Positions 1-57,516 of a DNA stretch of 64,000 bases are shown one piece after another. Source of the DNA: Enterobacteria phage vB_EcoM_IME340. Where the stretch lies: the sequence record MH051916; one strand, written 5' to 3'. How positions within the stretch are numbered: the stretch's first letter is position 1; the number at the start of each line of letters is the position of its first letter. A program made the translations under genes and the position numbers. The notes under the pieces were generated by a model. That model made no database searches. It had not been told where the DNA came from and worked only from the letters and a program-made list of their open reading frames with translations.

Positions 1-572
1 GACTATCCTTGCTTAACTCGTAGAGAGTTTGAAGGAATTGACTATGATCGTGAGACTAATTTAAATCTGACTAAATTAGAAGTAATTACGATTATGGAAC
101 AAGCATTTTGCTATCTTAATAGTAAAAGCCCAATTAAAGGCGTGTTTGTTTTTGATGACGAAGGACAAGAATCAGTTAATTCCGTAGCATTTAACAAGAT
201 TATTGACGTTATAAATAATATTGAAGATCAATGGTCAGTCCGTCGTCTGATGCAAGCCCTAGGTACGGATTTGATTGTTAATAACTTCGACCGCATGTAT
301 TGGGTAAAATTATTTGCTTTAGATTATCTTGATAAATTTAACTCAGGTTATGATTATTATATCGTTCCTGATACTCGTCAAGATCATGAAATGGATGCGG
401 CTAGGGCGATGGGTGCTACAGTAATTCATGTAGTTCGTCCTGGTCAAAAATCCAATGATACTCATATTACAGAAGCTGGATTGCCAATTCGTGATGGCGA
501 TTTAGTAATTACAAACGATGGTTCTCTTGAAGAACTTTTTTCTAAAATTAAAAATACACTAAAGGTACTATA

Positions 573-573
<1 letters not shown>
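1..573 (+). CDS. 1: deoxynucleoside monophosphate kinase (gp1), 3' portion; 5' end lies upstream of window
   Basis: Open frame from base 1 to stop at 571-573; translation matches remembered C-terminal part of T4 gp1 (..EQAFCYLN..KNTLKVL). Confidence 0.85.
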
Positions 574-1270
<697 letters not shown>

Positions 1271-1282
1271 TTTCACAAAGTT

Positions 1283-1313
1283 ATTTACACGGGGTTTTAG
1301 TTGTGATACTATT
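1283..1313 (+). promoter_or_regulatory. sigma70-type early promoter (-35 ATTTAC, -10 GATACTAT)
   Basis: ATTTAC at 1283-1288 and TG-extended -10 about 16 bp downstream; upstream A/T tract. Confidence 0.5.
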
Positions 1314-1348
1314 ACCCTATCAAAACAAATGAGTGATTGGAGAATAAA

Positions 1349-1621
1349 ATGAAAACATTTAAAGAATTTATCAATGAAGCTACTTTTAACGAAAAAGTAA
1401 AAATTAGCAAAGCTGTCAAGACTTTGATTGCTGACATCAATTACCTATATGATATTGATTTAACTGACTATGTAACAGTTGGTAACAAACGTAACTTTTT
1501 CGTGTTTGACATCTCTGAACTTGACCAGAATCAAATTAACAACATTGAGCGTTTTGCTAATGATAAGGGTCTTCGTCATGAGTCAGCGGGTTATAAAAAA
1601 TACGCAATTTATTTAAAATGA
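1349..1621 (+). CDS. internal-protein-like protein with capsid-targeting N-terminus (MKTFKEFINEA)
   Basis: ATG at 1349 preceded by GGAGAATAAA; N-terminus matches T4 Ip capsid-targeting consensus; track ORF 1337 is an upstream TTG extension. Confidence 0.65.
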   Translation: MKTFKEFINEATFNEKVKISKAVKTLIADINYLYDIDLTDYVTVGNKRNFFVFDISELDQNQINNIERFANDKGLRHESAGYKKYAIYLK

Positions 1622-1652
1622 GTTTACTTTTAAATAGGGTTGTGGTACTATT
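1622..1652 (+). promoter_or_regulatory. sigma70-type early promoter
   Basis: GTTTAC 1622-1627, -10 GGTACTATT around 1644-1652. Confidence 0.5.
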
Positions 1653-1681
1653 ATCTCATCAAAATTAATTAGGAAAATAAA

Positions 1682-1990
1682 ATGAAAACATTTAAAGAAT
1701 TTATCAATGAAGCGGCTGCACCAAAGACATTCGTTATTAATACTCAAGCGAGTCTTGATGATGAGTACGCGGAGGCAATTCTGAGGTCACTTGCTAAGAA
1801 CGGCGTTGAAGTAATCGCCTCGGACTTTAAGAAAGGGGCTTCCGAGATGTTTATTTCTATAACTAAAGGATCTAAAGCTAAAATCAAATCATCATTCGGT
1901 GTTGCTCGTACCGATCAAATCGACAATCATGACTTTAAACAAACTGGTGTTAAACGGCAGAACATAATTGCATCACGCGGAATAAAATAG
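1682..1990 (+). CDS. internal-protein-like protein (MKTFKEFINEA N-terminus)
   Basis: 102 aa ORF; same capsid-targeting N-terminus as previous gene; SD AGGAAAATAAA. Confidence 0.65.
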   Translation: MKTFKEFINEAAAPKTFVINTQASLDDEYAEAILRSLAKNGVEVIASDFKKGASEMFISITKGSKAKIKSSFGVARTDQIDNHDFKQTGVKRQNIIASRGIK

Positions 1991-2000
1991 TTTATAAACC

Positions 2001-2031
2001 GTTTACTTTTAGATGGGGTAGTGATATTATT
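2001..2031 (+). promoter_or_regulatory. sigma70-type early promoter
   Basis: GTTTAC 2001-2006, -10 TGATATTAT about 17 bp downstream. Confidence 0.5.
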
Positions 2032-2058
2032 ACCCTATCAACTACTGAGGAGAATAAA

Positions 2059-2241
2059 ATGAAACGTTGTGAATTAATTCGAAATGTTGCTATTGCAATT
2101 TCTGCTTCCGCTTTTAGTTTTTCAATGTTTGTTGGATTTATATGCGGATTATTAACTACAGCAGAAAATGTGTTTTCACTTGTAGTAGCATTTTTAATTG
2201 GTTTAATTGCTATCGTTATGGATAAAATTTCTAAAGGTTAA
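2059..2241 (+). CDS. small hydrophobic (membrane) protein
   Basis: 60 aa ORF, SD GGAGAATAAA, two hydrophobic stretches. Confidence 0.5.
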   Translation: MKRCELIRNVAIAISASAFSFSMFVGFICGLLTTAENVFSLVVAFLIGLIAIVMDKISKG

Positions 2242-2243
2242 TA

Positions 2244-2531
2244 ATGATTCTTTATGCTAAAGTATCATCCATTGAAAATGGATATAAATATGATCAAGAA
2301 GCAACTAAAGCCTTGATTGATGATTATGGCATTTTAACGTGTTTTGAAGTTGAAAAGGTTTACATTGACCGTTCATCTTCTCAGGTTAAATTAGTTAAGG
2401 AAGACCGTAAATTTAATACAGTAAATTTTGATTTCTTTATTGAAACAGAAAAAGGTCCTCTTGAATATGATATTTTCAAGAATCCTTTGGGTCTTGAATG
2501 CATCGTAAACATGTATTATCATAAATGGTAA
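2244..2531 (+). CDS. hypothetical protein
   Basis: 95 aa ORF immediately following previous stop. Confidence 0.5.
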   Translation: MILYAKVSSIENGYKYDQEATKALIDDYGILTCFEVEKVYIDRSSSQVKLVKEDRKFNTVNFDFFIETEKGPLEYDIFKNPLGLECIVNMYYHKW

Positions 2532-2628
2532 ATATGCTTTAAGAATTATTTGTTATTATTAACTCATATCGCACTGATTAATACCCTCTATCATCAAGGG
2601 TTCTTGCTTGAGAGCCTTTGTTAATAAT

Positions 2629-2701
2629 TGGGAATTAGCCAAGTTGGTAAGGCACTGGATTTTGATTCCAGGATGCAAAGGTTCGAGTCCTTTATTCCCA
2701 G
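2629..2701 (+). tRNA. tRNA-Gln (anticodon UUG), CCA not encoded
   Basis: Manual fold: acceptor TGGGAAT/ATTCCCA, anticodon stem CTGGA/TCCAG with loop TTTTGAT, T-loop GGTTCGAGTCC. Confidence 0.8.
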
Positions 2702-2702
2702 C

Positions 2703-2789
2703 GCGAGAATGGTCAAATTGGTAAAGGCACAGCACTTAAAATGCTGCGGAATGATTTCCTTGTGGGTTCGAGTCCCACTTCTCGCACCA
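2703..2789 (+). tRNA. tRNA-Leu (anticodon UAA), long variable arm, CCA encoded
   Basis: Acceptor GCGAGAA/TTCTCGC, anticodon loop CTTAAAA, T-loop GGTTCGAGTCC, 3' ACCA. Confidence 0.8.
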
Positions 2790-2794
2790 AATTT

Positions 2795-2868
<74 letters not shown>

Positions 2869-2878
2869 ATTTAATTTA

Positions 2879-2952
2879 CTCCGTGTAGCTCAGTTTGGTA
2901 GAGCGTCTGCTTTGGGAGCAGAATGTCGCAGGTTCAAATCCTGCCGCGGAGA
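2879..2952 (+). tRNA. tRNA-Pro (anticodon UGG), CCA not encoded
   Basis: Acceptor CTCCGTG/CGCGGAG, D-arm GCTCAGTTTGGTAGAGC, anticodon loop TTTGGGA, T-loop GGTTCAAATCC. Confidence 0.8.
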
Positions 2953-2954
2953 CT

Positions 2955-3044
2955 GGAGGCGTGGCAGAGTGGTTTAATGCACCGGTCTTGAAAACCGGCA
3001 GTCGCTCCGGCGACTCATAGGTTCAAATCCTATCGCCTCCGCCA
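2955..3044 (+). tRNA. tRNA-Ser (anticodon UGA), long variable arm
   Basis: Acceptor GGAGGCG/CGCCTCC, anticodon loop CTTGAAA, T-loop GGTTCAAATCC, 3' GCCA. Confidence 0.8.
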
Positions 3045-3049
3045 GTTTT

Positions 3050-3125
3050 GCTGATTTAGCTCAGTAGGTAGAGCACCTCACTTGTAATGAGGACGTCGGC
3101 GGTTCGATTCCGTCAATCAGCACCA
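3050..3125 (+). tRNA. tRNA-Thr (anticodon UGU)
   Basis: Acceptor GCTGATT/AATCAGC, D-arm GCTCAGTAGGTAGAGC, anticodon loop CTTGTAA, T-loop GGTTCGATTCC, 3' ACCA. Confidence 0.8.
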
Positions 3126-3126
3126 A

Positions 3127-3201
3127 GGCCCTGTAGCTGGAAGGTTCAAGCAAGCGACTCATAATCGCCAGATGGTGGTTCAATTCCACCCAGGGCCACC
3201 A
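3127..3201 (+). tRNA. tRNA with CAU anticodon (Ile2/lysidine type as in T4, or Met-like)
   Basis: Acceptor GGCCCTG/CAGGGCC, anticodon loop CTCATAA, T-loop GGTTCAATTCC, 3' ACCA; T4 carries an Ile tRNA with this anticodon. Confidence 0.7.
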
Positions 3202-3210
3202 AATTAATTT

Positions 3211-3297
3211 GGGGAGTTATCCCGTAGAGGTAGCGGTGTGGACTGTAAATTCATTGTCATTGCGACTCGGGTGGTTCGACTCCATCACTCCCCACCA
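3211..3297 (+). tRNA. tRNA-Tyr-like (anticodon GUA), class II with long variable arm
   Basis: Acceptor GGGGAGT/ACTCCCC, anticodon stem GTGGA/TTCAT with loop CTGTAAA, T-arm GGTGG-TTCGACT-CCATC, 3' ACCA; D-stem is only 3 bp so the call is less secure. Confidence 0.55.
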
Positions 3298-3301
3298 ATT
3301 T

Positions 3302-3376
3302 GGATGTGTAGCTCAATGGCAGAGCGATCGCCTGTTAAGCGATTGGTTATAGGTTCGAATCCTATCACGTCCGCCA
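3302..3376 (+). tRNA. tRNA-Asn (anticodon GUU)
   Basis: Acceptor GGATGTG/CACGTCC, D-arm GCTCAATGGCAGAGC, anticodon loop CTGTTAA, T-loop GGTTCGAATCC, 3' GCCA. Confidence 0.75.
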
Positions 3377-3380
3377 AATC

Positions 3381-3456
3381 CGAGGCATAGCTCAGAAGGA
3401 AGAGCAAGGACCTTCTAAGTCCTAGGTCGTAGGTTCGATCCCTACTGCCTCGACCA
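3381..3456 (+). tRNA. tRNA-Arg (anticodon UCU)
   Basis: Acceptor CGAGGCA/TGCCTCG, D-arm GCTCAGAAGGAAGAGC, anticodon loop CTTCTAA, T-loop GGTTCGATCCC, 3' ACCA. Confidence 0.8.
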
Positions 3457-3472
3457 ATTAAGTGAGGAAAAT

Positions 3473-3823
3473 ATGAAAGGTAATGTTTATTTAGTAGTTC
3501 ATGATTTAACATTCTATTTTAATCACAATGACACTGTTATTTCTGAACGTGTAATTAATTTACTTTATCAGCATGCAGATTATGTTTATGTCGAAAACGA
3601 ATACGGTCATTGGCAATTTCTCAAAAATCGTTCATTTGGTTTAGATGGTTACGAATACTTTGAACGTAAAGACCTTTTAGATAAAATTCCATTATCTACA
3701 CAATATCAAAATCACAAGTCTTTACATAAATGTCGGCTAATTCGAAATGCTGAATCTGCTTATGAAGCAATTGATTTATGGCGTAAACGCCGTGAACAGA
3801 TTGATGCTTTAAAAGAATACTAA
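3473..3823 (+). CDS. hypothetical protein
   Basis: 116 aa ORF starting 17 bp after tRNA-Arg with SD GAGGAAAATATG. Confidence 0.55.
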   Translation: MKGNVYLVVHDLTFYFNHNDTVISERVINLLYQHADYVYVENEYGHWQFLKNRSFGLDGYEYFERKDLLDKIPLSTQYQNHKSLHKCRLIRNAESAYEAIDLWRKRREQIDALKEY

Positions 3824-3829
3824 GAAACC

Positions 3830-4129
3830 GGGTCGCTACCGGTAAGTCGTCGGACTGATGTTCCCTGGAGTATAGTTTCTCCCACAGTTTTACTGTGTTC
3901 TGATTCTTTACTATCACAGCAGAAACGGCGCACAGAATTATCGATTCGAGGAAATATCTTTGCCGTAAGCCGAGTAGCGTTTTTGACGGAACGTTCGGAT
4001 ATGGTCGAGATATGGCCTTTTAAAAATATTAAGTAGCGTCAACTGCTTAATAACCGGGTTCGAATCCCGGCGTTTCGTACAAACACTTGCCTTAGCAGGT
4101 GGAACCCCGACAAGGTTGCCGCAAGGCTT
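3830..4129 (+). ncRNA. candidate structured stable RNA(s); contains a tRNA-like T-arm
   Basis: About 300 nt with no credible ORF in a dense genome; CCGGG-TTCGAAT-CCCGG T-arm motif at 4054-4072; ends at an intrinsic terminator; T4 encodes stable RNAs (species 1 and 2) beside its tRNAs. Confidence 0.35.
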
Positions 4130-4156
4130 AGCCCCGACCGAAAGGTTGGGGCTTTT
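4130..4156 (+). terminator. rho-independent terminator
   Basis: GCCCCGACC-GAAA-GGTTGGGGC hairpin followed by TTTTT. Confidence 0.7.
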
Positions 4157-4247
4157 TAGTTTGAATCACATAGAGAATGCTGTTACGGATAATAACAAAG
4201 TAATAAATAATTAATAACCAACCGATAAATTATTTCAAGGATTTTAA

Positions 4248-4811
4248 ATGAAAACCTATGCCGAGTTTTTAACCGAAGCAGCAAAATTACCATCTGAAGC
4301 AGATCTTACTAAAGTATTCTTCCACTTGGACCCAAAAGACCGCGGCGATTTTCTTAAGTGGAAAGCTAAAGCTATTGAAATGTATAACATTGATAATAGT
4401 TCTTTTACGATGAGTCAAGAAAATAAATTCAATAAAGCATTTTTCAAAATTTCTAAGAAACTGGCATCTGGCGCTCAGGTTCCTAAATCTGCCTTAGCTA
4501 CTCCTGAACGTGCACCTGTCAAAATTTCTAAGAATATGTTCGACACTAAAAAATACGTTAATGCTTTGAATAAAGCTCTTGATGCATTGGATGATGCAAA
4601 GAAGGCAGCCCGTGATCTTCAAGATGTGTACACCGATTTTGATCGTAAAACTAAAGGTTCTATTTCAAATAGCGAACGCAATAGTGTAAGTGTTTATTCT
4701 GATAGTCTTGATGTTCTTGGCGATGCGTATACTGAAATTAAAAATCGTATTAACACCGCATCTAAGCTAAAAGCTGCCGCAGAAGCTATAATAACTAAAC
4801 TAGATAAATAA
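4248..4811 (+). CDS. internal-protein-like protein (MKTYAEFLTEA N-terminus), 187 aa
   Basis: Capsid-targeting N-terminus; size similar to T4 IpIII but location differs. Confidence 0.6.
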   Translation: MKTYAEFLTEAAKLPSEADLTKVFFHLDPKDRGDFLKWKAKAIEMYNIDNSSFTMSQENKFNKAFFKISKKLASGAQVPKSALATPERAPVKISKNMFDTKKYVNALNKALDALDDAKKAARDLQDVYTDFDRKTKGSISNSERNSVSVYSDSLDVLGDAYTEIKNRINTASKLKAAAEAIITKLDK

Positions 4812-54247: not shown

Positions 54248-54412
54248 ATGAAAACATATAAAGAATTTATCAAAGAAGATATGGTAGCTGGAGATTCAGG
54301 TGGTAATCCTGAAAATATCTCTACTGGAACAACGTCAGGTGCTGTAGTAAATAAAGGTCCTGAACAGATTCCTAAAAAGAAAAAAGAGGAATCTAAAGAA
54401 AAAGAAGAGTAA
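54248..54412 (+). CDS. small protein with internal-protein-like N-terminus (MKTYKEFIKE), 54 aa
   Basis: ATG after GAGGTTAAT; capsid-targeting-like N-terminus; Gly/Lys-rich tail. Confidence 0.4.
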   Translation: MKTYKEFIKEDMVAGDSGGNPENISTGTTSGAVVNKGPEQIPKKKKEESKEKEE

Positions 54413-54414
54413 AA

Positions 54415-55443
54415 ATGTCATCAATACCTTGGATTGATAATGAGTTTGCATACCGTGCATTAGCTCATTTACCTAAATTCACACAAGTAAATAATAGTTC
54501 AACTTTTAAATTACGGTTTAGATGTCCTGTTTGTGGAGATTCAAAAACCGACCAAAATAAAGCCCGTGGATGGTATTACGGTGATAATAATGAAGGAAAT
54601 ATTCATTGTTATAACTGTAACTATCATGCACCAATCGGAATATATTTAAAGGAGTTTGAACCTGATTTATATCGTGAGTATATCTTTGAAATAAGAAAAG
54701 AAAAAGGTAAAAGTCGTCCAGTAGAAAAACCTAAAGAACTTCCTAAACAACCCGAGAAGAAAATAATTAAATCTCTTCCGTCATGCATTAGATTAGATAA
54801 ACTGACGGAAGACCATCCAATTATAAAATACGTAAAAGCTCGCTGTATTCCAAAGGATAAATGGAAATATCTTTGGTTTACAACTGAATGGCCTAAATTA
54901 GTTAATAGTATAGCACCAGGAACATATAAAAAGGAAATACCTGAGTCTCGTCTTGTTATTCCAATTTATAATGTTAATGGAAAAGCTGAGTCTTTTCAAG
55001 GACGTGCATTAAAGAAAGATGCTCCTCAAAAATATATCACCATCAAAGCTTATCCTGAGGCAACAAAAATCTATGGTGTTGAACGGGTTAAAGACGGTGA
55101 TGTATATGTTCTAGAAGGACCTATAGATTCGCTTTTTATTGAAAATGGTATAGCTATTACAGGCGGTCAATTAGACCTAGAAATTGTTCCATTTAAAGAT
55201 AGACGTGTATGGGTTTTAGATAATGAACCTCGTCATCCTGACACTATTAAGCGAATGACTAAATTAGTTGATGCAGGAGAAAGAGTTATGTTTTGGGATA
55301 AATCTCCCTGGAAATCAAAAGATGTTAATGATATGATTAGAAAGGAAGGTGCAACCCCTGAACAAATTATGGAATATATGAAAAATAATATTGCCCAGGG
55401 GTTGATGGCTAAAATGCGGTTATCTAAATATGCTAAGATTTAA
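54415..55443 (+). CDS. 61: DNA primase gp61
   Basis: 342 aa; N-terminal zinc ribbon CPVCGDS..CYNCNYH; Toprim-like core. Confidence 0.9.
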   Translation: MSSIPWIDNEFAYRALAHLPKFTQVNNSSTFKLRFRCPVCGDSKTDQNKARGWYYGDNNEGNIHCYNCNYHAPIGIYLKEFEPDLYREYIFEIRKEKGKSRPVEKPKELPKQPEKKIIKSLPSCIRLDKLTEDHPIIKYVKARCIPKDKWKYLWFTTEWPKLVNSIAPGTYKKEIPESRLVIPIYNVNGKAESFQGRALKKDAPQKYITIKAYPEATKIYGVERVKDGDVYVLEGPIDSLFIENGIAITGGQLDLEIVPFKDRRVWVLDNEPRHPDTIKRMTKLVDAGERVMFWDKSPWKSKDVNDMIRKEGATPEQIMEYMKNNIAQGLMAKMRLSKYAKI

Positions 55444-55640
55444 ATTAACCCAACTAAAGCAAATGCTAAATCTACGAATGTATCAAGAGTAACTACTGGA
55501 ATATTAATACCATGCGCAATAGCAACTGGCGATAAAACAAAATTCCAAAGTAAAATTCCTATCATAGCAGAAATAGTAAAAGCTATACGTTTTTTATTAC
55601 CTTTGATGGCATTAACAAGTGCCATTAATTTTTGTACCAT
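55440..55640 (-). CDS. small membrane protein on the opposite strand
   Basis: 66 aa, two hydrophobic helices; strong SD (AGGAGG 5 nt upstream of ATG on minus strand); converges on gene 61. Confidence 0.6.
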   Translation of the reverse strand: MVQKLMALVNAIKGNKKRIAFTISAMIGILLWNFVLSPVAIAHGINIPVVTLDTFVDLAFALVGLI

Positions 55641-55710
55641 ATGTCCTCCTTATTGCTTTATATATTTATTGTATAATTAATCTACTAATCCATGAATTGA
55701 AAGGATATAT

Positions 55711-56361
55711 GTGAATTACCAAAAAATTTACTCGGCTTTAATTACAAAAGCTAAATGCCGGCATCTTGGCGGATATAAAGAACGCCATCATATAATTCCT
55801 AGATGTATGGGAGGAACAGATGGCAAAAACAATCTTGTTGAGTTAACTGCGCGTGAGCATTTTATAGCTCATAGATTATTAACTAAAATATATCCAGATG
55901 TGAGAGGATTGCATTATGCTGTAAATTTAATGCGATATAATAAAGGTGTTAAATTAACAAGTAGATTAATAGAAACCCTTAAAATCCAAAACTCCGTTCT
56001 TTTCTCGGGTGAAAATAATCCTAGATATGGCAAGCCGTCATGGATTAAAGGCAAAAAGACCCCAGAAGAAACTAAAGCCAAAATGCGTCTAGCTCATAAA
56101 GGTAAAATTATATCCGATGAAGCCAAGGCTAATATGAGTAAAGCCCGAAAAGGAAGATTTAGCGGTAAAAATTCACCTCGATATGGTTTACCAAATCCTA
56201 GGCGAGGAGAAATATGGAATAGTTATGATGCGCTTTATGAATTATGGGTTTATAATAATAGACCTAAACGCACAAAATTTAATAAAATAGCTGTCAAGGC
56301 AGGTTATCCTAATATCTGCTATAGACATATGATAGAAAACTTCATAAGAAAGGAAAAATAA
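55711..56361 (+). CDS. HNH homing-endonuclease-like protein
   Basis: GTG start after AAGGA; HNH motif ERHHIIPRCMGGTDGKNNLVELTAREHFIAH; repeated GxNNPRYGK DNA-binding modules. Confidence 0.75.
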   Translation: MNYQKIYSALITKAKCRHLGGYKERHHIIPRCMGGTDGKNNLVELTAREHFIAHRLLTKIYPDVRGLHYAVNLMRYNKGVKLTSRLIETLKIQNSVLFSGENNPRYGKPSWIKGKKTPEETKAKMRLAHKGKIISDEAKANMSKARKGRFSGKNSPRYGLPNPRRGEIWNSYDALYELWVYNNRPKRTKFNKIAVKAGYPNICYRHMIENFIRKEK

Positions 56362-56362
56362 C

Positions 56363-56881
56363 ATGCCACATTTCAACGAATGTAGTCAACTGATCGCTGG
56401 TGCAGATAAAGCTCAAAATGAATATTGGGATATTCTCGGTGACGAAAAAGACCCGCTGCAGGTTATGCTTGATATGCAGAAATCTCTACAGGTTCGTTTA
56501 GCTAAAGATAAACCTGAATATAATCGTCATCCTGATGATTTGGCTACTGCTGGTGAAGTTGTTGATTGGCTGCGTAATCAGAAAGATTATATTGACGATG
56601 AATTCCGTGAACTTCTGACATCTCTTGGTGGTATGAGCAATGGCGAAAAAGATGCATCTGCTGTATGGAAGCCTTGGAAAGCTCAACATGGTGAACGTCG
56701 TGAAACTCTGATTACTGATTTGTCTCCACAAGACCAGTTGGAAATTAAATTCGAAATGATTGATATTCTTCATTTCGTTCTGAACATGTTCCAAGGTCTT
56801 GGTCTTACGGCTGAAGAAATCTTTAAACTTTATTATCTGAAAAATGCTGAAAACTTCGCTCGTCAAGACCGAGGTTATTAA
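56363..56881 (+). CDS. 56: dCTPase/dUTPase gp56
   Basis: 172 aa; ..NEYWDILGDEKDPLQVMLDMQ.. and C-terminal ..EEIFKLYYLKN.ENFARQDRGY match remembered T4 gp56. Confidence 0.9.
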   Translation: MPHFNECSQLIAGADKAQNEYWDILGDEKDPLQVMLDMQKSLQVRLAKDKPEYNRHPDDLATAGEVVDWLRNQKDYIDDEFRELLTSLGGMSNGEKDASAVWKPWKAQHGERRETLITDLSPQDQLEIKFEMIDILHFVLNMFQGLGLTAEEIFKLYYLKNAENFARQDRGY

Positions 56882-56925
56882 TAGCTCGTTTATTTAAACG
56901 ACGACTTAAAAGCCGCGAGAATTAT

Positions 56926-56933
56926 TATAAATA
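56926..56933 (+). promoter_or_regulatory. late promoter TATAAATA upstream of soc
   Basis: Exact TATAAATA 31 bp upstream of soc ATG. Confidence 0.65.
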
Positions 56934-56963
56934 ATCATGTAATTTAAATAAAAGGAGAATTAC

Positions 56964-57209
56964 ATGGCTAGTACTCGCGGTTATGTTAATATCAAAACGT
57001 TTGAGCAGAAATTAGATGGAAATAAGAAAATTGAAGGAAAGGAAATTTCTGTAGCTTTCCCTCTTTATTCTGACGTTCACAAAATTTCTGGCGCTCATTA
57101 CCAGACATTCCCTTCAGAAAAAGCAGCATATACTACTGTATATGAAGAAAATCAACGTACTGAATGGATTGCTGCAAACGAAGATTTGTGGAAAGTAACT
57201 GGCGGTTAA
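56964..57209 (+). CDS. soc: small outer capsid protein Soc
   Basis: 81 aa; MASTRGYVNIKTFEQKLDGNKKIEGKEISVAFPLYSDVHKISGAHYQTFPSEKAAYTTVYEENQRTEWIAANEDLWKVTGG. Confidence 0.95.
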   Translation: MASTRGYVNIKTFEQKLDGNKKIEGKEISVAFPLYSDVHKISGAHYQTFPSEKAAYTTVYEENQRTEWIAANEDLWKVTGG

Positions 57210-57215
57210 TAATTC

Positions 57216-57243
57216 AAGGACTCCTGAAGGAGTCCTTTTTTTT
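57216..57243 (+). terminator. rho-independent terminator
   Basis: AAGGACTCC-TGAA-GGAGTCCTT followed by a 7-8 T run. Confidence 0.85.
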
Positions 57244-57253
57244 CATTTAAACG

Positions 57254-57285
57254 GTTTACTTTCCAAAACAAGTATGGTATAATAA
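57254..57285 (+). promoter_or_regulatory. sigma70-type early promoter
   Basis: GTTTAC 57254-57259, -10 TGGTATAAT ending 57283. Confidence 0.6.
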
Positions 57286-57309
57286 AATTATCTTATAGAG
57301 GAGAGCACC

Positions 57310-57516
57310 ATGTTAAATCGTTGGATTAAACCAAATGAAGATTTAGATATTATCATTTCACGGCATGTAATGAAGAAATATGAACTACAACCATGGTCTA
57401 CAGAAGTTGTTGTGCATTCATTTATGATGTACGCAGATGGTTCTGTCGAATTTAATGCAGAGATTCGATATGATTATGGTGAGAAGCAAGTTGAATTCAA
57501 GAGAGGCTTTTTGTAA
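57310..57516 (+). CDS. hypothetical protein
   Basis: 68 aa ORF with SD GAGGAGAGCACC. Confidence 0.5.
   Translation: MLNRWIKPNEDLDIIISRHVMKKYELQPWSTEVVVHSFMMYADGSVEFNAEIRYDYGEKQVEFKRGFL

Follow-up and report, generated by a model that had tools for sequence, protein, structure and literature searches.

Introduction

In bacteriophage T4, the genes of the Mob and Seg homing endonucleases are promoter-less cassettes, MobA and MobE act by nicking, and gene 56 is the target of SegF (PMC2988022). MobE is encoded between nrdA and nrdB and nicks nrdB of phages that lack the HNH gene (PMC2988022). SegF is a GIY-YIG enzyme whose gene lies between gene 56 and soc and whose cleavage target is gene 56 of T2-type phages; this free-standing gene is thus attached to its own target, with localized marker exclusion (PMC2988022). 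Here we describe the junction of genes 61 and 56 in Enterobacteria phage vB_EcoM_IME340 (sequence record MH051916), a T4-like phage of the genus Tequatrovirus, based on one stretch of 64,000 nucleotides (hereafter, the window). The junction holds an HNH endonuclease gene on the plus strand and a 66-codon membrane-protein gene on the minus strand, which a first-pass annotation of the letters alone had read together as a mobile-element insertion, possibly with the small gene as cargo. We conclude, with a probability of roughly 85%, that they are two independent neighbors, namely a Mob-type homing endonuclease at gene 56 and a resident, probably late membrane-protein gene.

A Mob-type endonuclease gene upstream of gene 56

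The HNH gene (55711–56361, plus strand) encodes a protein of 216 aa with a GTG start that matches PHROG 655 (“homing endonuclease”, E 1e-59), and its ORF ends one base before the ATG of gene 56. Over its N-terminal nuclease domain (aa 1–81), the protein shared 63% identity with T4 MobE (E 2e-33). Both genes are free-standing, promoter-less, operon-oriented cassettes beside an essential gene of nucleotide metabolism (PMC2988022), although that neighbor is nrdB for MobE and gene 56 in the window. Furthermore, MobE, with 141 aa, is without the NUMOD3 region and the C-terminal domain, and its nicking is known, whereas nicking by the protein of the window is putative. The identity to T4 MobD was 34% over aa 1–211 (E 4e-34), with the same domain architecture and a shared C-terminal motif, W..YD.LY.LW..NRPKR..F....GYP. 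By contrast, MobD is encoded at the nrdC.11/mobD.1 locus and has a different linker, and its nuclease domain is less similar to that of the window protein than the domain of MobE is. As with SegF, a free-standing homing gene is attached to gene 56, here its presumed target gene, and gp56 of the window and T4 were 73% identical, against 98% for gp61. Unlike SegF, which is not found in the window, the HNH protein belongs to another nuclease family and its gene lies on the other side of gene 56.

The protein comprises an HNH nuclease domain at approximately aa 17–60 (H26, H27, N41, H50, and H54), NUMOD3 repeats at approximately aa 97–160 (Pfam NUMOD3, E 7e-7, three stretches, including GENNPRYGK and GKNSPRYGL), and a three-helix C-terminal domain at aa 165–216. 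These matches bear out the first-pass annotation, which had described a 216-aa HNH ORF with repeated GxNNPRYGK modules and had named degenerate catalytic residues as an observation that would speak against its reading. In an alignment of 38 homologs, the residues Y3, E24, H26, H27, P30, G35, N41, E49, H50, and H54 were invariant and all are present in the window; judged from the alignment, the HNH catalytic motif (H26, H27, N41, H50, and H54) is intact and not degenerate. The Pfam HNH match reached only E 0.035. An AlphaFold model (pLDDT 85) contained strands at 24–27 and 42–45, a helix at 47–60, a helical linker, and the three-helix C-terminal domain, which is predicted to bind DNA. Fold searches with this model yielded weak matches to HNH domains (Cas8-HNH, IscB, Gme, and GVE2 HNH) and to small helix-turn-helix DNA-binding domains, and a sequence comparison with solved structures returned nothing useful, with an RxLR effector as top match (E 0.15).

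The motif residues together with the strand-strand-helix arrangement in the model are those of an HNH (His-Me finger) nuclease. Homology to MobE and MobD, an N-terminal HNH domain, and a distinct C-terminal region, as well as a free-standing position between conserved genes, host transcriptional orientation, sporadic distribution, and empty sites, are those of a Mob-type gene. On these sequence features, 55711–56361 is a free-standing homing endonuclease gene of the T4 Mob family. The dN/dS ratio of the gene was 0.07–0.20, and every copy examined was intact. Relatives already carry the gene annotated as “homing endonuclease” or “mobE” (e.g., “mobE” in IME08 and VR5), and it is an ordinary, previously annotated kind of element.

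Insertion boundaries and expression of the endonuclease cassette

We aligned the junction of the window with those of T4_ev240 (HNH-less), T4, IME537 (dam and HNH), and fPS-90 (HNH only). This alignment, of the kind that the first-pass annotation had proposed as a check, revealed sharp insertion boundaries; many empty-site alleles exist (e.g., T4_ev240 and H31–H40). Comparison of filled and empty alleles indicated that the HNH ORF is a discrete insertion of net 651 bp within the ribosome-binding site of gene 56, bounded by a 7-nt direct repeat, GAAAGGA. The left copy (55699–55705, plus strand), after which the insertion begins, is the native gene 56 Shine-Dalgarno site, which has been taken over by the HNH gene. 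The right copy (56348–56354, plus strand), with which the insertion ends, lies within the last HNH codons (RKEK*), so that the gene 56 Shine-Dalgarno site is rebuilt in the final codons AGA AAG GAA AAA TAA. In the filled allele, the left boundary falls between TTGAAAGGA and TATATGTG and the right boundary between AAGAAAGGA and AAAATAACATG, where the empty allele reads TTGAAAGGAAAAATAATG. Followed up to the start codon of gene 56, the empty allele reads AATTGAAAGGAAAAATA-ATG, and the filled allele has AATTGAAAGGA and TATATGTGAATTAC on the two sides of the left boundary and AAGAAAGGA and AAAATAAC-ATG on those of the right.

The small gene and the 59 nt that separate it from the left boundary were the same in filled and empty alleles. 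In IME537, the HNH gene is still directly upstream of gene 56 despite a 186-aa ORF and dam that separate it from the small gene; since it keeps its place beside gene 56 there, the HNH gene tracks gene 56 and not the small gene.

A MotA-dependent middle promoter was predicted on the plus strand at 55651–55677, with the MotA box tatTGCTTTA (55651–55660), an 11-nt spacer, and the −10 element TATAAT (55672–55677). Its layout agrees with the published rule of wwwTGCTTtA at 12 ± 1 bp from a −10 element (PMC2988021). HNH-less relatives have the identical element, and in fPS-90 it is annotated as “middle promoter”. The HNH cassette has no promoter of its own, and no plus-strand terminator was predicted inside it. 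This MotA promoter is predicted to drive gene 56 in empty alleles, and both the HNH gene and gene 56 in the window. In our reading, the HNH gene came in without a promoter and settled where translation of gene 56 is initiated. For its own expression, the cassette depends on the MotA middle promoter and the Shine-Dalgarno site that belong to gene 56; its GTG start is weak, and its last codons supply gene 56 with a replacement Shine-Dalgarno site. The GTG start overlaps an out-of-frame ATG followed by TGA (ATGTGA, 55709–55714), a start-stop that could lower translation of the endonuclease. At the same position, the Jiaodavirus copy reads CTGTGA and the Dhakavirus copies have a normal ATG.

Distribution and lateral transfer of the endonuclease gene

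A 2-kb query over the 61–56 junction matched 840 phage records, with Escherichia phage vB_Eco-B1.1 and its relatives at the top (96–98% identity), and a 301-nt piece was 100% identical to vB_Eco-B1.1. The HNH protein was found at an identity of at least 90% in 54 records (tblastn); Dhakavirus came next with 78%, and the remaining tblastn matches, with at most 50%, were other Mob-like genes at other loci. The small ORF was present at an identity of at least 90% in approximately 500 Tequatrovirus records, about one-tenth of which carry the HNH gene. The occurrence of both genes in all close relatives, with no empty sites, would have counted against a mobile element; for the HNH gene, about 10% carry it and empty alleles are common. 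The HNH–56 junction was recovered at a coverage of at least 80% in 43 records, including Klebsiella Jiaodavirus phages and Dhakavirus (IME08 and VR5). The HNH gene was located directly upstream of gene 56 in Jiaodavirus (92% amino acid identity), Dhakavirus (78%), and L018 (79%), and three genera share the insertion site.

The window was 93–98% identical to the Jiaodavirus copy in L051 over 55709–55996 and 56237–56416, with flanks of 38–70% identity, and the excess of HNH identity over flank identity indicates lateral transfer. The first 54 nt of gene 56 (56363–56416, plus strand) were of the Jiaodavirus type, with 98% identity to L051 and L025 versus 77% to the HNH-less Tequatrovirus L006. 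Beyond 56416 the pattern flips, with 56% identity to Jiaodavirus-like versus 92–98% to Tequatrovirus-like sequences, and the Klebsiella phage matches end exactly at query position 217, which is 56416. The HNH-less Jiaodavirus-like contigs L024 and L025 carry the same gene 56 start as native sequence. We infer that 56363–56416 was co-converted, together with the HNH gene, from a Jiaodavirus-like donor. This co-conversion tract was shorter in IME537, fPS-90, and 235Ecol030PP, ending near +34, as would result if the events were separate or if recombination followed later. In its central NUMOD3 portion (approximately 56057–56236), the HNH gene was 98% identical to the Dhakavirus-like copy in L018 versus 76–78% to the Jiaodavirus copy and is therefore itself a recombinant.

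Signs of loss were also found. L010 and phage PD112 are HNH-less yet keep GAAAGGAAAAA(A)TAAC-ATGCCACATTTCAACGAATGTAGT, as read in their sequences, which is the remnant expected if the DNA between the GAAAGGA repeats were deleted precisely. With a 98% match over the same junction, CE1 and EC128 are probably further HNH-less genomes that keep the HNH-type start of gene 56.

One may argue from such alleles that the HNH gene is ancestral at the gene 56 site, has been lost repeatedly, and is now a domesticated or inert remnant and not actively homing. The shared site in three genera agrees with this explanation, as do the HNH-less alleles with HNH-type flanks, which resemble precise losses between the GAAAGGA repeats. 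We nevertheless regard it as unlikely, because an HNH gene of 93–98% nucleotide identity between Tequatrovirus and Jiaodavirus within neighboring DNA of 38–70%, together with the sharp switch at 56416, needs recent lateral transfer. Moreover, no copy has a broken ORF, purifying selection on it is strong, and the gene is a mosaic of Jiaodavirus-like and Dhakavirus-like segments. The losses fit the normal gain-and-loss cycle of homing and are no argument against mobility.

For an actively homing gene at gene 56, we propose, by analogy with MobE and MobA, that in mixed infection the HNH enzyme would nick or cut the genomes that lack its gene, within or close to the conserved 5′ end of gene 56, this nuclease activity and target site being putative and nicking the default expectation here. 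Repair by recombination with the HNH-bearing genome would then copy in the endonuclease gene with flanking donor sequence, and the Jiaodavirus-type first 54 nt of gene 56 would be the trace of such a repair event. The sequence around the insertion point is kept across genera (AATTGAAAGGAAAAATA-ATGGCNCAYTTTAAYGAATGT). Homing enzymes favor conserved sequence such as the start region of gene 56. In two lineages, HNH-bearing and empty alleles differ in the spacing between Shine-Dalgarno site and ATG and in the first ~10 codons of gene 56. The same HNH-type flanks also occur without the HNH gene in L025, L010, and PD112, and flank substitutions as proof of immunity were rejected for this reason.

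Gene 56 was dimorphic among phages whose primases are 98–99% identical, with gp56 of the window 98% identical to that of some relatives and 70–73% to that of T4, L042, and L047; such dimorphism fits repeated endonuclease-driven gene replacement. The annotated oriA point of T4 (T4 16763) lies approximately 22 nt inside gene 56, within the stretch that is donor-type here (56363–56390), and the HNH gene puts 651 bp between the oriA point and the MotA promoter, the transcript of which is the presumed primer for oriA (PMC3016281). In L040 (IMGVR_UViG_2974741249), the region 100–4300 was heavily rearranged, with fragmented primase matches and two partial gene 56 copies; the same 4 kb hold an 81%-identical copy of the HNH gene of the window and two further endonuclease-like matches.

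A conserved membrane-protein gene on the minus strand

The small gene (55440–55640, minus strand) encodes a protein of 66 aa that matches PHROG 2024 over its full length (E 3e-31), the family of RB69ORF029w and RB32ORF030w. It is convergent with gene 61, the two stop codons overlapping by 4 nt (TTAA). A Shine-Dalgarno sequence, AAGGAGG (55645–55651, minus strand), is located 4 nt before the ATG and is conserved across genera, in line with the strong AGGAGG site read by the first-pass annotation. In a survey of minus-strand ORFs of at least 50 aa over the whole 64 kb, it was the sole one outside plus-strand ORFs with a Shine-Dalgarno sequence, and its earlier description as the only convincing minus-strand gene held. 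The protein had also been described as a two-helix membrane protein. An AlphaFold model (pLDDT 75) contained an N-terminal helix (2–13), a hydrophobic helix of 27 residues (16–42), a loop, and a short hydrophobic helix (52–62); the model thus has one long transmembrane helix and a short C-terminal hydrophobic one rather than two full membrane spans. The gene probably encodes a small inner-membrane protein.

The small gene was found in 691 phage records (tblastn), 685 of them at a coverage of at least 80%, including T6, RB14, RB32 (RB32ORF030w), and RB69 (RB69ORF029w). T4 itself has an intact copy of 66 codons with 94% identity (AF158101 17738–17935; NC_000866 17738–17938, clockwise; L005 4239–4436), where no feature is annotated in NC_000866 or AF158101. 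Minus-strand ORFs of 61–74 codons directly after gene 61 were present in nearly every Tevenvirinae locus fetched, and these positional orthologs all matched PHROG 2024 (function unknown) with E 1e-15 to 1e-28. W32, N33, P38, G44, and P48 were invariant across subfamilies of 20–29% identity. The full-length profile match, the convergent position, and the hydrophobic core W-N-x4-P-x5-G-x3-P place the small protein in PHROG 2024. The dN/dS ratio was 0.14–0.39, with synonymous sites saturated between genera (dS above 1). When 1.84 billion representative proteins were searched with a profile built from the small-protein alignment, only six matched and no link to a larger family emerged; by these searches, the family is confined to T4-like phages. 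Taken from its conservation, the small gene is a resident gene of the Tevenvirinae that is not carried by the endonuclease.

L014 and L039 (2512–2918, minus strand) carry two small-protein paralogs in tandem, one each of the MGTLFYQIWKL and MLKLSSLIQAIKG types, and most genera have just one of the two types. In T4_ev240 (LR597657, L001 ~2193), a 1-nt deletion in a T-run breaks the small ORF, leaving an annotated fragment of 42 aa; either the homopolymer was misread in sequencing or the gene is truly inactivated. On the plus strand, the frame after the gene 61 stop (55444–55640) runs for 66 codons without interruption in the window, in T4, and in L020, and has a stop in L014. Read-through of gene 61 was rejected as an explanation, as a hydrophobic ORF on one strand is expected to leave such a mirror frame open on the other and the frame is closed in L014.

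A late-promoter-like box, AATAAATA (55663–55670, minus strand), was predicted for the small gene 13 nt upstream of its Shine-Dalgarno sequence. It is an A(−13) variant of the T4 consensus TATAAATA, a variant found in 9 of 50 T4 late promoters (PMC2988020). Orthologs in all genera have a strong Shine-Dalgarno sequence and, 3–13 nt further upstream, a box TATAAATA, NATAAATA, or TATTAAATA. ATAAATA was three-fold depleted in the window, with 12 copies versus 39 ± 6 expected; three of these are on the minus strand, including that in the box of the small gene. In T4, early and middle transcripts all have one polarity and only late transcripts run opposite (PMC2988020). Because of the conserved box, the depletion of ATAAATA, and this transcript polarity, the small gene is most likely a late gene transcribed from a TATAAATA-like promoter. 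In T4, the box would be GATAAATA, with a late clockwise transcript starting approximately 6 nt downstream, near 17.72 kb. The promoter elements of the two strands overlap in the 70-nt region between the small gene and the HNH gene. A late envelope or lysis-related role is our guess for the small protein, offered with low confidence.

The 66-codon ORF might alternatively be noncoding, the stretch being kept as a terminator of gene 61, a regulatory spacer, or a late RNA antisense to the primase mRNA. A terminator-like hairpin after gene 61 (55603–55638, plus strand; 11-pair stem followed by TTTTTG, from a consensus scan) indeed falls within the opposite-strand codons for the N-terminus of the small protein, that is, within the first codons of the ORF, and fPS-90 has an annotated terminator. 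The predicted late transcript would also run antisense into gene 61, as no minus-strand terminator was found; the ORF is missing from the T4 reference annotation and its frame is broken in one record, T4_ev240. A noncoding stretch, however, would not be expected to remain open in every genus despite saturated synonymous sites (dS above 1) and with a dN/dS ratio of 0.14–0.39, nor to conserve an ATG with a strong Shine-Dalgarno sequence, keep five invariant residues across subfamilies at 20–29% identity, and occur as tandem paralogs in some phages. We regard this explanation as unlikely, although the ORF could have an antisense role alongside coding.

That the HNH gene and the small gene belong to a single mobile cassette in which the membrane gene is cargo (e.g., for exclusion or as a toxin), as their adjacent and divergent position with overlapping promoter elements in a common 70-nt control region may suggest, is already refuted by distribution and can be dismissed almost entirely: the insertion boundary lies 59 nt beyond the start of the small gene on its upstream side, the small gene is present in HNH-less genomes, in dam-bearing genomes, and in every tested genus, and its sequence tracks the host lineage, with an identity of 92–97% within Tequatrovirus (gp61, 98–100%) and ~50% across genera, versus 92% between genera for the HNH protein.

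Flanking genes and other features of the window

The window carries, on the plus strand, gene 41 (helicase), gene 61 (primase), gene 56 (dCTPase), soc, and mrh. The left neighbor of the two genes, gene 61 (DNA primase, 54415–55443, plus strand), matched PHROG 47 (E 2e-105) and was 98–100% identical to Tequatrovirus relatives. The right neighbor, gene 56 (dCTPase/dUTPase, 56363–56881, plus strand), matched PHROG 173 (E 6e-47) and Pfam dUTPase_2. It is followed by soc (56964–57209, plus strand; Pfam Soc, E 1e-54). Exact copies of TATAAATA occurred six times in the window, all on the plus strand, one of them upstream of soc (56926–56933). An Rfam scan of 54300–57400 gave no credible RNA family.

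T4 has dam between genes 61 and 56 and segF between gene 56 and soc. The first-pass annotation had suggested other content at the former junction in T4, possibly dam, which is indeed found there, and had stated that segF is missing from the present genome, where the gap between gene 56 and soc is 82 nt and no segF match was obtained in the window. In dam-bearing relatives, a 186-aa ORF (phrog_8706) abuts the start of dam (2332–2889 in L002, which is IME537, and 1601–2158 in L008), and T4 has a remnant of its last ~21 codons (L005 4149–4211). This ORF weakly resembled type II restriction enzymes (PADLOC REase_II, E 9e-5; Pfam DpnII, E 0.0045, below threshold). DpnII cuts GATC, which is the Dam site, and the dam cassette of T-even phages may be a decayed GATC restriction-modification module.

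Elsewhere in the window, ten contiguous tRNA genes (2629–3456) were identified for Gln, Leu, Gly, Pro, Ser, Thr, Met/Ile-CAT, Tyr, Asn, and Arg, with no endonuclease gene inside the cluster. The corresponding region of T4 holds eight tRNA genes and segB.

Discussion

The comparisons establish the anatomy, boundaries, distribution, conservation, and selection of both genes at the 61–56 junction, and they divide the initial mobile-element reading in two. For the HNH gene it is upheld by a sharp insertion, empty sites, a patchy distribution, and an intact motif. It fails for the small gene, which the insertion boundaries exclude and which is present with or without HNH or dam in ~690 records, so that the cargo idea falls and the same gene does occur at this locus in relatives generally. 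The divergent orientation described at first (55440–55640, minus strand, versus 55711–56361, plus strand) is real, and it arose because the HNH gene landed beside a resident gene.

Several points weigh against parts of our conclusion. The putative target of the HNH enzyme could lie elsewhere than at the start of gene 56. Since HNH-type flanks are also found in HNH-less genomes, the recoding at the 5′ end of gene 56 may be a footprint of the donor and not a change that confers immunity. As for late expression of the small gene, Jiaodavirus orthologs have just 3 nt between the late box and the Shine-Dalgarno sequence, which is awkward for a late start site, and a literature search gave neither transcript nor protein data on the gene.

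The HNH gene is a second, unrelated homing gene that has landed at gene 56, on the 5′ side here and, as SegF, on the 3′ side in T4. The locus is a clean natural example of intergeneric transfer with a mapped co-conversion tract, and also displays domain-level mosaicism in the endonuclease gene and footprint alleles after its loss. All of these findings are in keeping with what is known of homing endonucleases and hold no surprise for a specialist.

Of the two genes, the small one is of greater interest. T4, whose genome is among the best annotated, carries an intact, conserved, and apparently late membrane-protein gene that has no reference annotation, which is why the PHROG 2024 protein has gone unstudied. 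Its gene is convergent with the primase gene in nearly all Tevenvirinae, and its promoter is interleaved with the MotA promoter implicated in oriA priming. Tentatively, since we rate this as somewhat less than an even chance, the PHROG 2024 protein of 61–74 aa may be an unrecognized late component of T4 biology, acting in lysis timing, in the envelope, or in membrane-associated assembly.

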